A program made the position numbers. Below, piece by piece: positions 32,901 to 38,900 of a stretch of 64,000 nt of DNA (position 1 is the stretch's first letter; every line of letters begins with the position of its first letter). The DNA is taken from positions 206,835-270,834 of the forward strand of contig CAYZJB010000001.1 in the NCBI GenBank assembly GCA_964478735.1, written 5' to 3'. The DNA is from an uncultured Bacteroidota bacterium (lineage in GTDB: Bacteria > CLD3 > SB21).

Positions 32901-35900
32901 CGGATGGTGGGGCATGTTTCATCCGGCAGGGCAAAAACACGTTGATGAAATGGACGGAATGATCCCGTTTTTTGCGTTGTGTTTTAGTGGCGTTGCAGGA
33001 TCGATGTACGTCATTGTAATGATCGTACGTAAAGTCCTGTCACGTAATGACTAACTATAGATCGGAAGATTTGGTGCCTCGGAATAGCCGGCTTGTTCCG
33101 TCGAGACTTGCATGCAACGTCTTGACAAGACAAATCTCTCTAACAGGTAACGAGTTCGGGTGACCAGGTGAACCTCCAAGCTTTTTCAACGACCGCTAAG
33201 AAGCCGTCATGATGTCTTGATGACTGACTCTGGAACTTCCGTTCCGCCCATTGCCTTCCATTTCGTCGTTCCGTATCATTTCCATCATGCCGGGGTTTAT
33301 TTCAGTCTTTGTCCTGTGTGCGCTGGTGGCAGTGGACGGGGCAGCACAAATGGGGCGGCGATCGTCACGAGATAAAAAAACAATCGTCGTCGCACGGGAC
33401 GGCAGTGGGCAGTACGGCTCCATCCAGGAGGCCATCGACAATGCCGATGCGGACTCATGGATACGGATACGAAGCGGCATCTATCGCGAAGACCTTCATC
33501 TCAAGAGTTTTGTCAATTTGCAAGGGGACGGCGTCGGCCGGACCGTGATCGTGGGAACCGGTGCCGGGCCCGTCGTCTCGGCGTACAATCTCTCGGGCAC
33601 GCGCCTGGTCGATCTCACGATCCAGTTTGCCTCTCCGGTCCCGTATCCCGTCCTGAGTTTCCGCTATTCGAGCGTTAACGTACAAAATTGTCTTGTCCGG
33701 AACGGCGCGACCGGTATCGAAGCCTATGGCCACAGTACCGTGCGGCTGAGAAATACCTGGCTGAGCGATCATACGGGCGACGGATTGCGCCTGTCGATCC
33801 GTTCCGAGGCCTACGTGCAGGACAGCCGGATCGAAAATAACGGCGGTGACGGTATCCGTATCGAACACGCCTCCGGTTGCAACGGCGACCGTCTGATCGT
33901 CCGCCGCAACCGCGGTCACGGCATCAGCCTCAAGGACCGTTCCGTCGGCAATTTTCTGGGAAATTATCTTTACGACAATCGAGGTGGAGGACTGCGCGCG
34001 GAAAACTCCGTTCCGGTCATCCGGAACAACACGTTCGTACGCAATGGAGACAGCGCCGGTTACGCCGTTCGCCTGGAAGGCGTCACGTCGGCCGGATTAA
34101 GTAACAATCTGGTCGTGTCCGGTTACGGGGGATTTCGTGTGTTCAAAAGTCAGACGGTAACGATGTCGCACAACGCGGTGTGGAACCTTGCCGTACCGTA
34201 TGACGGCATTGAAGGCGGTCCGACCGCACTTGAGGCGCCGCCGCGATTTGTGAATCCGGCGATCGACGACTTTCGCCTCGATCCGTCATCGGCGTTGTAT
34301 CATAAAGGCGAAGGCCGTGTCTCGATCGGCGCGGACTTCGACTACGACAAAAGCGCCAAACGTCAGCGTCTCGACTACCTGCGGAATCAGGTGACGAAAG
34401 ACCTTGTGCGGGGGAACTGGTACCTCGCGTATCAGGGCGCCAGGGAAATGATCGAGATCGACTCGACGGGCGGCGAGGGCCAGAGTCTTTTCAAAAAAGC
34501 GAGTTCCCATCTCGCCGAAGCGTATGCCGAACAGGCGAGGGAGGAATTCAACCGCGGTAATCTCAGTCTGGCCACGAACACCCTGCGCTTTGCCGAAAAA
34601 TACGACGCCTCCAATGAAGCCGTGAAGGATTTACGGGAGCGCATCGACGAAGCGTCGCGGGCGTCGCAGATCCGTTTTTTTTCCGTGATTGGCGTGCTGG
34701 CGGTCAGCGTCGTCGGGCTGGGTTACGTTCTTCGCAAGTGGATCCGGCAGCGTGACGCCCAGCGCCAGGTGCAGTGGTGGCTCGAAGACGCGGAGGAGCA
34801 CGTGGAAATGATGCAGGCCGCGGAAGGCGCCTCGTACGATGCCGACGCGACCCGCGAAGCCTTGAACGCGATCGAAAAGGCACGGGGCGCATTTGCCCGC
34901 AAGGAGTGGGACGAAACGGAACGGCACTGCGCCGATACCGTCCACTATGCCAATCGGGCCAGGGACGCTGCGGAACGGTATCATCGCCTCAAACGCGATG
35001 CGATCTTCGATACCGGGAACGCGGAGACGGAAATGATGCATTTCAAAACAAGCGATACGTCGGGCCGGTTCTATTCCGAGATTGCCGATCTGCAATCGCA
35101 ATTGCAGAAGGCGCAGGATGCGATCGTCGGCCAACGTTACGGCGATGCCAGGGACCTCGCGGCGCAGATCGTGGAAGCCATTGGCAACCTCCGGACGGTG
35201 TCGGCGCAGGAACGCGACCGTGAAATTCTGTCGCTTTTTCAGGAAACCGAAACGCTCATTATCGACGCGCTGGCGAGCAACAGCAGCGCGGACGTGATTT
35301 CCGTCGTCATCGATTTCAAGTCCGACCTCGAGGTGCTCAAAACGGGATTCACCGCGGGTCAGCTCGACGCGGAAGAGACGTGCCACCAGGTCCGGCAGAT
35401 CCGCGACTTCATCAACGAAGCGATGAAAATCGGCGAGCCCGGAGCAGGGGCATCACGACGGAAACGAACGTATTATGAAATTCTGGGCGTCAAGGAAGAC
35501 GCCACACTGGAGCAGATCAAGCAGGTGTATCGAAAACTCAGCATGATTTATCATCCCGACGTCAATCAGGACATGGGCATTGCCGGCGACGAACGGTTTC
35601 GGGAAATCAAGGAAGCGTACGACGCCCTGATGTTGGAAAAGACGAACGGAGGGCGTTCGTGAAAACGGCTTCCCGCGCGCCTTTCCGCATTTTTGCCGTG
35701 CTGGTCGTGCTCTGCCTCGCGCAGGCCGGCTGGTGGATTTATTTCCAGATTCAGGAGGCCGAGCATTCGTATCAACTCCGCATGAGCCATCTCGAGGCCG
35801 TGCGGTCTCTTGTCGAACTGCAACACGGGAACGCCCGTACCGGCATCGTCGACAGCGTACTGGCGCTGCAGTATCCCGATCTGAGGGTCCTGTCGTCCGA

Positions 35901-38900
35901 TCCGCTTCGCCTCGGTATCCGCGAGGACGCCGTACGGCGCGAACGACGGGATGCGGACGGACGGGTGGTGATGTTTATCTCGGAAGGAGTGTTTTTTTTG
36001 CTGCTGATACTGGGTGGCATGGTCGTGATCTACATGACGATGGTGAGAGACGCGCGGCTGCAGAGGCAACAGAATAATTTCATCCTCAGTGTCACACACG
36101 AATTCAAGTCGCCGCTCGCATCGTTGAAACTGTACCTGCAGACGATTTTGGCCAAACCCGTGGCCCCGGACCGCCAGCGGGCCTTTCTCGAAAACGGCCT
36201 CGGCGATATCGATCGTTTACAAACCCTCATCGACAACGTGCTTGCCGCTTCACGGATCGAACACGGAGGTCAATGGTCCATGGAGCCTGTGAACCTGTCC
36301 GAGGTGGCGGAAAACGTACTGAAAAAAGCATTGTATATTCCGGACCGGCATCGCATCGAAACGTCGATCGAGACCGATCTCCGGATGACCGGCGATTCGG
36401 CCGCTCTGTATTCCGTCATCGATAATTTATTGGACAATGCGCTCAAATACTCGAACCAACAGGTCCGTCTTTCGTTGGCGAAGCATGACGGCCGCATTGA
36501 ATTGCGGGTTGAAGACCGCGGTCCCGGTATCGATTCCAAATACCGGAAATTGATCTTTCAGAAATTTTTCCGGATTGGAGACGAAATGACGCGTCGTTCA
36601 CACGGTACGGGTCTCGGCCTTTTTCTGGTCGACCAGATCATTCAGCGCCACGGCGGTACGGTCGACATCCGTACGCAAACGTCCGGTGAGACCGGAACGA
36701 TGTTTATCGTGTCATTTCCAGCAAAGGAGACGCCTTGAAGCCACGAATCCTTCTTGTCGAAGACGAAGCGCATATTGCGGAATCGTTGTTGTTCAATCTC
36801 GAGGATCCGTACGACGTCGTGTGGGTCAAGGACGGGGAGTCGGCACTGTCGCTCGTCCGATCCGAGCGGATCGATCTTTTGATCCTCGACGTCATGCTGC
36901 CCGGGTTGAACGGTTACGACGTCTGCAAAAAAATCCGCGACGACGGGAACAACGTACCGATCCTGATGCTGACGGCGCGGAATGAAGACCGGGACCGCGT
37001 GGAGGGCCTCCGGCAAGGCGCTGACGACTATCTCGGCAAGCCGTTCAATCTGGACGAATTTTTACTTCGCGTGCAGGCGCTGTTGCGGCGGGCCGGGCTG
37101 AAGGAACAGTCCCATAGCCGATTTTCATTCCATGACGTTACCATCGATTTCGACAATTACGAAGCGACGAAAAACGGCCGCAAGATGACGCTGACGAAAA
37201 CCGAATGCCTGTTGATGAAACTCCTGATCGAAAAGGAAGATCAGGTGGTCACGCGCGAGGAGATGCTGTCGAAAGTCTGGGGATATGAAAATTTTCCGTC
37301 GACGCGGACGGTGGATAACTTCGTCGTCAAGCTTCGTACCTATTTCGAACCCGATCCGAAAGAACCGAGGTTCATTCTGTCGGTGCGAGGAGTGGGATAC
37401 AAGTTTACGAGATTGGTATAGGAAATGACCGGGCGCATGGCAACGAGCAGGGAAGAAAAAACTTATTGTGACTCTCGAGCGGCGCGGTTATTTTAACCCA
37501 CATCGTTCGAACAAAGGAGACAGTATGAAATGGTTGGTCGCATTCGTTGTACTGGGGACGTCAGCCGTCGCCCAGGACGCGCCGGGAGACACGTATACCA
37601 TCGCGGCGGGTTCCAACACGATCACAATCACGGGCGCGAAGCGCGGGGCCGAAGGATATTATAAAGAAGTCGTGATGAATAGCACGATGCCCCTGCGGGT
37701 CTTTTTCAAGAAGAACGATAAAACGGATTCCGATCTCTATGCCAACGAAGTAAAGATATATTACAAGCGGAATGAGCGAGGAGAAGAAGTCTGCGACGTC
37801 GGTATCGACGGCAAGTTCTACTGGTCGTCGCGCGTCGTATACTTTGTTACGGCCAATGTCCAGGCGGATTTCATCAAGGTGAACGACAACCGCATCACGC
37901 TGGACAAAATCTATTATCTCGATCAGGGAGGAATTCCCTTTTCCATTTCGCGCATTGCCGCCCGCTAAGGGCGGTTTTCGTTTTAGCACACGCTTTTTGA
38001 CGAACCTCCTCGATGTCGGACTTTGTCCATCTTCATACCCACAGCGATTACAGTTTCCTCGACAGTTGTTGCAAAGTAGACCAACTCATCGGCGCCGCGG
38101 TGGAAAGCCGCATGCCGGCGCTGGCGCTGACGGATTACGGAAATCTTTGCGGCGCGGCGGAATTCTACAGCAAGGCGAAAGCCGCCGGCATCAAGCCGAT
38201 CATCGGGATGGAGGCGTATCTCGCACCCAACCGCCTGGAAAAAAGCCGCTTGATTTACCATCTCCTGCTGATGGTCAAAGACGAAACCGGGTACCGGAAC
38301 CTGACGAAGCTTTCATCGCTCGGGTATCTCGAAGGGTTTTATTACAAACCGCGGATCGATAAGGCGCTGTTGCGGCAACATGCGGCGGGACTGATCGGGA
38401 CGTCGGCCTGCCTCAAAGGGGAAATTCCACAGAGTCTGATGCACGGGCGATACGACCAGGCACGGGCCGCCGCCCTGGAATACCTCGATATTTTTGAGGG
38501 ACGTTTTTATCTCGAAGTTCAGCGGCACGGACTCGAGGTCGATACGCGTGTCATCGAAGGCATGCAACGCCTCTCCGCCGACCTGAATATACCTCTCGTG
38601 GCCGCCAACGATATCCATTATATGCGTCCCGAACAGGCGTCCGCTCATGAAGTGCTGCTTTGCATCCAGTCGGGCAAGACGATCAACGACGTTACCCATC
38701 CCCGATATCCAGGCCATTCGTTTTACTTCCGGTCGTCGGCGGAAATGAAAACATTGTTTGAAGACATACCGTCGTCGATCGACAATACGCTGGCACTTGC
38801 GGAATCCGTGGAATTCAAAATGAACTTCGGACAGGCTTTGCTGCCGAAATTTACGCTGCCCGATGGAACAACGGAAGACGATTACCTCCGGCAGTTGGCT

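Follow-up and report, generated by a model that had tools for sequence, protein, structure and literature searches.

A 64,000-nucleotide stretch of DNA from an uncultured Bacteroidota bacterium (contig CAYZJB010000001.1, positions 206,835 to 270,834; hereafter the window) carries on its forward strand the gene of a receptor-like type III J-protein, followed with overlapping codons by the genes of a sensor histidine kinase and of an OmpR/PhoB-family response regulator. The same arrangement recurs in 14 distinct lineages, far beyond what chance would produce. Our preferred reading, held tentatively and at a little less than an even chance, is that the three proteins signal together as a three-component unit, with the J-protein as an auxiliary input and DnaK as the transducing agent. 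Membrane-bound type III J-proteins that act on signalling are already known; the present one departs from DjlA in its large ectodomain and in sharing a conserved operon with a kinase and its regulator. A literature search found neither the architecture nor the operon described, and the database name for the family is ‘right-handed parallel beta-helix repeat-containing protein’, nothing more.

Calling of open reading frames in the window places four genes on the same strand ahead of dnaE, which begins at 38013. The J-protein gene (33287..35662) encodes 791 residues from the ATG at 33287, in a frame that is open from a TTG at 33251. It is followed by the kinase gene (35659..36738; 359 residues from a GTG start), the regulator gene (36735..37421; 228 residues from a TTG start) and the gene of a small secreted protein, considered at the end. 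The 4-nucleotide overlaps that a sequence-only reading had reported at 35659–35662 and 36735–36738 are exact in position: GTGA joins the J-protein stop to the kinase start (junction cgttcGTGAaaa) and TTGA joins the kinase stop to the regulator start (junction cgccTTGAagc). The start codons are credible because the N-termini of homologues align. GGAGG or AGGAG boxes precede the starts of the kinase (35648–35653), regulator (36723–36727) and secreted-protein (37514–37518) genes, and none precedes the J-protein gene. An order of accessory protein, kinase and regulator, with overlapping codons, suggests that the three proteins are co-expressed.

Conservation of the three-gene unit

Loci were gathered from a scan of GTDB species, from one metagenome match and from contig look-ups of individual proteins, and duplicates were merged (L013 with L014, L016 with L017, L009 with L012). 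The order J-protein, kinase, regulator, with the three genes adjacent and on the same strand, was found in 14 distinct lineages (the window, L001, L002, L004, L006, L007, L008, L011, L013, L015, L016, L018, L020 and L021), the J-proteins being 38–92% identical to that of the window. Neighbourhood conservation in related genomes had been put forward by the sequence-only reading as a check on its proposal. When this check was run, 14 of the 18 distinct J-protein lineages with a readable downstream context proved to keep the J-protein and the two-component system together and tightly packed. Between the J-protein and kinase genes the spacing is −4 nucleotides in the window clade, L008, L020 and L021, the overlap being identical to that of the window in L013, L015, L001, L008, L020 and L021, and it lies between +1 and +15 nucleotides in the other linked loci where the kinase start can be placed; in L011 the called reading frames overlap and the kinase start is ambiguous. 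In a maximum-likelihood tree of the J-proteins the linked state spans at least four deep, well-supported clades.

The genes flanking the unit vary. Upstream stands a DUF2851 gene in the window, genes for a Pyr_redox_2 protein and a Fer4 protein in L002, L006, L007, L011, L013 and L016, an S21 gene in L020 and L021, and the gene of an FG-GAP protein of the type IX secretion system (T9SS) in L004 and L008. Downstream, the window clade has the secreted-protein gene and dnaE, and most other clades have a convergent Laminin_G_3/T9SS gene that starts 1–8 nucleotides past the regulator gene. In L006, L007, L011 and L018 the upstream gene has a terminator hairpin, after which a promoter-like element stands immediately ahead of the J-protein gene. 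Taken with the convergent downstream gene, these signals mark out the trio as a transcription unit of its own. Since the flanks differ while the trio persists within its own boundaries, it behaves as a self-contained unit held by selection. The link between the J-protein and the kinase pair is frequent, neither obligatory nor universal, so that the unit supposed by the sequence-only reading stands as conserved and tight but not as a fixed association: four J-protein lineages are unlinked and three kinase pairs are without a J-protein.

Architecture of the three proteins

The full architecture of the J-protein is common to 18 homologues, from which an AlphaFold2 model was built (mean predicted local distance difference test score, pLDDT, of 85). 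A signal peptide (residues 1–21, from hydropathy and the model) precedes an exported right-handed β-helix (33380..34279, residues 32–331), modelled at a pLDDT above 90 and also indicated by Pfam and Foldseek. Then come a periplasmic five-helix stalk (34343..34681, residues 353–465) with the conserved motif DYLxxQxTKDLxRxNWYLAYQ, a single transmembrane helix predicted from hydropathy (34682..34744, approximately residues 466–486), a cytoplasmic all-helical domain of about 230 residues (34754..35431, residues 490–715) that bears the invariant juxtamembrane motif RQxxWWxxDxxE, and a J-domain (35468..35647, residues 728–787) with its HPD at 756–758 and a basic helix II. The C-terminal part is placed in the cytoplasm because basic residues (LRKWIRQRDAQRQ) come after the membrane helix, and the AlphaFold2 model has a low-confidence, flexible linker between the helical domain and the J-domain. 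The protein has the layout of a receptor that crosses the membrane and carries its J-domain on the cytoplasmic side.

Pfam recognises Beta_helix (E = 3.6e-18), NosD, the N-terminal part of Pectinesterase and DnaJ (E = 3.7e-17, residues 728–784). Membership of the J-domain family is clear, with 62.6 bits for PF00226 against a cut-off of 27.8 and a helical hairpin in the model. The residues H756, P757 and D758 and the basic residues of helix II are invariant in the 18 sequences, so that the domain, judged by its sequence, should be competent to stimulate DnaK. It cannot be assigned to the type I or type II DnaJ proteins (DnaJ, CbpA), which combine an N-terminal J-domain with a G/F-rich region, in some a zinc finger, and substrate-binding domains at the C-terminus, as it lies at the C-terminus rather than the N-terminus; the NCBIfam DnaJ and CbpA models match the 55-residue J-domain alone, at 36–59 bits against cut-offs of 338–619. 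DjlA (NCBIfam NF006948) is likewise rejected, with 26.1 bits against a cut-off of 162, a 440-residue ectodomain and no TerB match in Pfam. No NCBIfam equivalog cut-off was reached by the J-protein. Its cytoplasmic helical domain matches no Pfam family and has no sequence relative in the PDB (best E-value 0.9).

The β-helix resembles, in Foldseek searches (E-values 1e-6 to 1e-3), the epimerases AlgE4, AlgE6 and AlgG, a PL6 alginate lyase, GH87, pectin methylesterases and phage tailspikes, and at its N-terminal cap it carries a motif like that of pectin methylesterases (DGSGxYxSIQxAID). Identity as a pectin methylesterase (PF01095) was rejected, since profile positions 2–67 of 298 alone align, and the Foldseek matches reflect the general β-helix fold. 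By eye, none of the catalytic motifs of known β-helix enzymes was recognised. The domain, a β-helix of the polysaccharide-binding type, may be catalytic or may bind a ligand only.

The family is small. A word-indexed search of 5.8 billion proteins gave nine full-length relatives, and an exhaustive phmmer search with residues 355–791, from stalk to J-domain, against 1.84 billion cluster representatives (50% identity) found just seven that carry this half of the protein. Six of the seven are about 800 residues long, with the match beginning at residue 350–370 or so, and the seventh is shorter (646 residues). The remaining matches cover the J-domain alone or the J-domain with up to about 185 preceding residues. 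The family thus has few members and one architecture. Where a source is named, it is an uncultured Bacteroidota bacterium or an unclassified metagenome-assembled genome. A metagenome scan added one locus, a duplicate of L009, and the window sequence itself occurs in hot-spring and freshwater metagenomes, a search of sequencing runs having returned DNA runs only.

The kinase is a class I (HisKA) sensor kinase, matching HisKA with 47.7 bits and HATPase_c with 91.5 bits, and its phospho-acceptor H147, in SVTHEF, is invariant. Hydropathy places membrane helix 1 at residues 9–31 (motif LAQxxWWxYxQ) and helix 2 at about 103–129 (motif MFxSEGxFF); the latter runs straight into HisKA, the dimerisation and histidine phosphotransfer (DHp) domain. 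No HAMP or PAS domain was detected with Pfam. The two membrane helices, the DHp domain and the catalytic core are conserved, and the periplasmic loop is the least conserved part of the protein. The sequence-only reading had noted a short periplasmic segment, which is true of the window and its clade (65–70 residues or so) and is a peculiarity of that clade, the loop being 150–190 residues long in most relatives. In intramembrane-sensing histidine kinases, as defined by Mascher, two membrane helices are joined by an extracellular linker of fewer than about 25 residues. Both loop lengths exceed this, and membership of that class was therefore rejected; the resemblance is functional only, in a variable loop between conserved membrane helices. 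The architecture of the kinase fits input through the membrane or from a partner.

A word-based search with kinase residues 1–140 reached the near clade only, and a search with a profile of the linked kinases was used instead. This shows a gap in score between orthologues, at 493 bits or more, and an enormous group, below 316 bits, of small kinases whose membrane helices number two. The WW pair near the outer end of membrane helix 1 (kinase residues 20–31, window 35716–35751; proteins P0021–P0059) is common to a very large family of such small kinases, mostly from Bacteroidota-like sources, where the motif takes the form QFxWWxYLL or AQxxWWxYxQ. To our knowledge this helix-1 motif has not been described.

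The regulator meets the definition of the OmpR/PhoB family in Pfam (Response_reg, 96.4 bits; Trans_reg_C, 77.9 bits) and is 58–95% identical across the linked loci. It reached none of the NCBIfam equivalog cut-offs for MtrA, RpaB, PhoB, OmpR or CpxR. A Cpx identity was rejected, CpxA scoring 117.5 bits against a cut-off of 486 and CpxR 137.7 against 341, and the precedent of CpxAR with NlpE and CpxP, invoked by the sequence-only reading, holds as a loose analogy and not as homology.

The J-protein as a possible input or effector

In the mechanism that we consider, the three-gene operon would encode a ‘three-component’ signalling unit. The kinase appears to be without a cytoplasmic sensor domain and its periplasmic loop is hypervariable, and almost deleted in the window clade; it therefore probably cannot read a cue through a periplasmic domain of its own. 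The cytoplasmic helical domain of the J-protein would hold the kinase, or the complex of kinase and regulator, and the J-domain would load DnaK-ATP onto that complex, shifting the balance between kinase and phosphatase activity. Signalling would then be governed jointly by the ectodomain, whose state a glycan or an envelope cue would set, and by the amount of free DnaK, and the regulator would in turn control its targets. Next to gene structure, topology, domain identities and conserved linkage, which are observed, we infer the contact between J-protein and kinase, the involvement of DnaK (which the sequence-only reading had put forward as a possible remodelling of the kinase), the direction of the effect and the ligand. 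This accessory-input reading is supported by the receptor-like topology of the J-protein, by its place as the first gene with overlapping codons, by the degenerate loop of the kinase and by published precedents among Hsp70 and J-proteins. A more specific version is rather doubtful, namely a hard-wired Hsp70-gated two-component system whose receptor J-protein reads an envelope glycan and loads DnaK, as the first operon-linked co-chaperone subunit. If true, the output of the kinase would combine envelope status with the availability of cytoplasmic chaperone, and the system would be a bacterial counterpart of ERdj4–BiP–IRE1.

Several observations weigh against the accessory-input reading. The J-proteins of L003, L005, L009 (the same locus as L012) and L010 have no kinase–regulator pair within 8 kb in the fetched flanks; the contigs of these unlinked J-proteins are CAZJBS010000001, CAZSRX010000023, CAYPIY010000008 and JBBIJR010000039. 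A 5′-nucleotidase gene stands upstream of the J-protein in L005, L010 and L003, the next downstream reading frame in L003 encoding a secreted protein and not a kinase, and in L009 a LytTR regulator gene lies upstream and a Mut7-C RNase gene downstream. In the tree these unlinked proteins form two clades, and linkage was lost at least twice. A single position, K371, cleanly separates linked from unlinked J-proteins, and no group-specific change was found in the cytoplasmic domain of the latter. There is thus no sign of a lost interface, and the J-protein may work without this two-component system. The membrane helix of the J-protein is, moreover, poorly conserved. The WW motif of kinase helix 1 is common to hundreds of small kinases without a J-protein and was accordingly rejected as a J-protein-specific contact. 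The sequencing runs with the window sequence are all DNA and none RNA, and the independence of the lineages is limited, all being uncultured members of one narrow group.

The kinases also occur in another setting. In L019, whose kinase scores at orthologue level, and in L022 and L023, from the next tier, the kinase and regulator genes lie in haem-biosynthesis operons (L019 5733–10129; L022 1784–13880; L023 6001–12897), with no J-protein in the fetched flanks. The gene order there is hemA, hemC, hemD, hemB, hemL, kinase, regulator, hemE, hemN, hemH, hemY. In the kinase tree the haem-operon members interleave with J-linked kinases inside one clade with 100/99 support, which again counts against a dedicated input. 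This is one kinase–regulator family with two alternative contexts, and its cue, perceived by way of the conserved membrane helices, may be haem, porphyrin or redox state.

The main alternative inverts the roles, and we judge it unlikely, though a serious contender. The J-protein would be the output, a co-chaperone anchored in the membrane, where it would recruit DnaK to envelope or polysaccharide machinery, and the two-component system would sense through its own membrane helices and autoregulate the operon. It accords with the related kinase–regulator pairs embedded among hemL, hemE, hemN, hemH and hemY, genes that they presumably control, and with the persistence of the J-protein, its cytoplasmic domain unchanged, in the four lineages without the two-component system. 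In Caulobacter, DjlA is reported to be co-induced with an efflux pump that spans the envelope and to help it (PMC10754441), and HSP20 and Lon are encoded about 1.3 kb downstream in one clade. Less easily reconciled with an effector are the receptor-like topology and large conserved ectodomain of the J-protein, the position of its gene at the head of the operon with a 4-nucleotide overlap into the kinase gene, and a kinase that has no recognisable sensing domain and, in the window clade, a shrunken loop; nor is any client machinery conserved beside the operon. That the adjacency is mere inherited synteny in one narrow lineage, devoid of functional coupling, is very improbable: all loci do come from related uncultured Bacteroidota metagenome-assembled genomes, the exhaustive search gives only seven clusters at 50% identity and linkage was lost at least twice, but the flanking genes on both sides are reshuffled around an intact trio, gaps of −4 to +15 nucleotides are kept at 38–55% protein identity, and the trio has promoter and terminator boundaries of its own.

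Chaperone control of bacterial signalling is represented, in the sources drawn on here, by scattered cases: DjlA acting on Rcs, mostly when overproduced, DnaK acting on MprB, and sigma-32, on which both DnaK and DnaJ act. We know of no co-chaperone genetically dedicated to the signalling pair in any of these. Escherichia coli DjlA, a type III J-protein anchored in the inner membrane, works on the Rcs phosphorelay together with DnaK and GrpE; with DnaK it weakens the interaction of IgaA with RcsD and so activates the phosphorelay, for which both its HPD motif and its membrane anchoring are needed (PMC11709261). It resembles the window J-protein in its order of domains, a membrane helix coming first, a cytoplasmic middle domain next and a J-domain with HPD at the C-terminus. 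It differs in having almost no ectodomain and a TerB-like middle domain, in not being encoded with the rcs genes and in exerting its effect on overproduction, whereas the window protein has 440 residues of exported β-helix and stalk, an unrelated helical middle domain and an operon shared with a kinase and a regulator. In Mycobacterium tuberculosis, DnaK is described as binding MprB and suppressing its autokinase activity until titrated by unfolded proteins (PMC8561658, citing Bretl et al. 2014). Here too, on that secondary account, an Hsp70 acts on a sensor kinase, but within the same account no J-protein is known to be dedicated to MprB, no co-chaperone is linked to it in an operon and DnaK is reported to bind the extracytoplasmic domain.

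LiaFSR, VraTSR, BceS–BceAB and CpxA with CpxP and NlpE offer a different parallel, each being a case in which a kinase that senses poorly by itself leans on a partner in the membrane or the periplasm. The gene of that partner stands immediately before the kinase gene in LiaFSR and VraTSR. There is no sequence relationship, however, and none of the accessories in these systems has a J-domain or recruits a chaperone; the loop of the present kinase is also longer than in classical intramembrane-sensing kinases. In ERdj4–BiP–IRE1 a J-protein loads an Hsp70 onto a transmembrane stress-sensor kinase and so holds it in one state. That system belongs to another kingdom, to the lumen of the endoplasmic reticulum and to a different class of kinase, and the comparison is an analogy only. 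The β-helix enzymes (AlgE4 and AlgG, the PL6 lyases, pectin methylesterase and NosD/CASH) share the fold of J-protein residues 32–331, but in none of them is it joined to a membrane helix and a J-domain.

A bacterial signalling pair may therefore have a chaperone helper built in as one of its inputs. If the accessory-input reading is true, three proteins and DnaK would make a clean, minimal system for how Hsp70 switches a histidine kinase, and it would follow that a transmembrane receptor can have a J-domain for its output. The operon gives a first functional context to a family of β-helix repeat proteins of about 800 residues, and it points to a wider kinase–regulator family tied to haem-biosynthesis operons.

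Upstream region and neighbouring genes

A promoter scan found a promoter-like element, TTGCCT-17-TATCAT (33251..33279), that ends 7 nucleotides before the J-protein ATG. About 45 nucleotides before the ATG are conserved at the nucleotide level in the window (33240–33289), L013 (7955–8003), L015 (509–557) and L001 (7955–8003), down to 55% protein identity, and a 1-nucleotide indel in L001 shows that they are not conserved as coding sequence. Across these lineages the element ends 6–7 nucleotides before the ATG and there is no Shine-Dalgarno box, which suggests a message that starts at the ATG; the J-protein mRNA may, on this sequence evidence, be leaderless. In the window the element is overlapped by three copies of TTCC(A/G)T, at spacings of 13 and 11 nucleotides.

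Further upstream, synteny with L013, which is 91% identical, is broken at window 32354–33250. S21, Pyr_redox_2 and Fer4 genes precede the operon in L013, and the window instead has the opposite-strand DUF2851 gene and a 930-nucleotide spacer. Within the spacer lies a 69-codon reading frame (32845–33054) with two predicted membrane helices and no match in any related locus. A palindrome at 33104–33129 and CTTGACAAG were considered as a conserved control element of the operon and rejected, as neither aligns with the upstream regions of L013, L015 or L001.

One clade has, about 1.3 kb past the operon and on the far side of a convergent T9SS-cargo gene, genes for HSP20, Lon and a receiver-HATPase protein (L004 13771–17996; L006 and L007; L020 9953–14220; L021 10419–14693), and a strong TTGCAT-17/18-TATATT promoter precedes the HSP20 gene there. 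Neither an HSP20 nor a Lon gene is present in the window. This vicinity could hint at a proteostasis regulon and is restricted to that clade; a heat-shock regulon was rejected as too weak a claim on the evidence of a single clade. A shared regulator-binding motif was sought upstream of the J-protein operons and HSP20 genes, where only sigma-70-like promoter elements are recognisable. Such −35 and −10 elements are seen in these metagenome-assembled genomes even though they carry the label Bacteroidota.

The fourth gene of the window (37525..37968) encodes an exported protein of 147 residues whose signal peptide ends at AVA|QD, and which the model, at low confidence (pLDDT 55), predicts to be all-β. 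It matches no Pfam or NCBIfam family. By tblastn and alignment the gene was found only in the window clade (the window, L001, L013/L014 and L015, four lineages in all), at about 72–97% identity and always between the regulator gene and dnaE. A promoter-like element after an A-tract, TTGTGA-17-TATTTT (37466..37494), is conserved at the nucleotide level in all four loci, L001 included, which argues that the gene has its own promoter; as no terminator lies between it and the regulator gene, read-through from the operon is possible.

The sequence-only reading had cast this protein as an output or modulator of the two-component system. Such a role is improbable, even though the gene is on the same strand, begins 103 nucleotides past the regulator gene with a terminator after it and none before, and is very strongly conserved, at about 72% identity in L001 against 55% for the J-protein. 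Ten of the 14 linked lineages lack the gene, which where present has a conserved promoter-like element to itself, and its constant position just before dnaE makes it equally possibly a neighbour by descent; nor do its low-confidence model and want of a family speak for the proposal. The secreted protein is a clade-specific neighbour and a separate unit, not part of the conserved module. Both it and the closing terminator described in the sequence-only reading are present at the expected places, the terminator as an intrinsic-terminator-like hairpin with a T-tract (37957..37984) that overlaps the stop codon of the secreted-protein gene; its GC-rich hairpin of 7 bp occupies 37957–37975 and is followed by TTTTCGTTTT.

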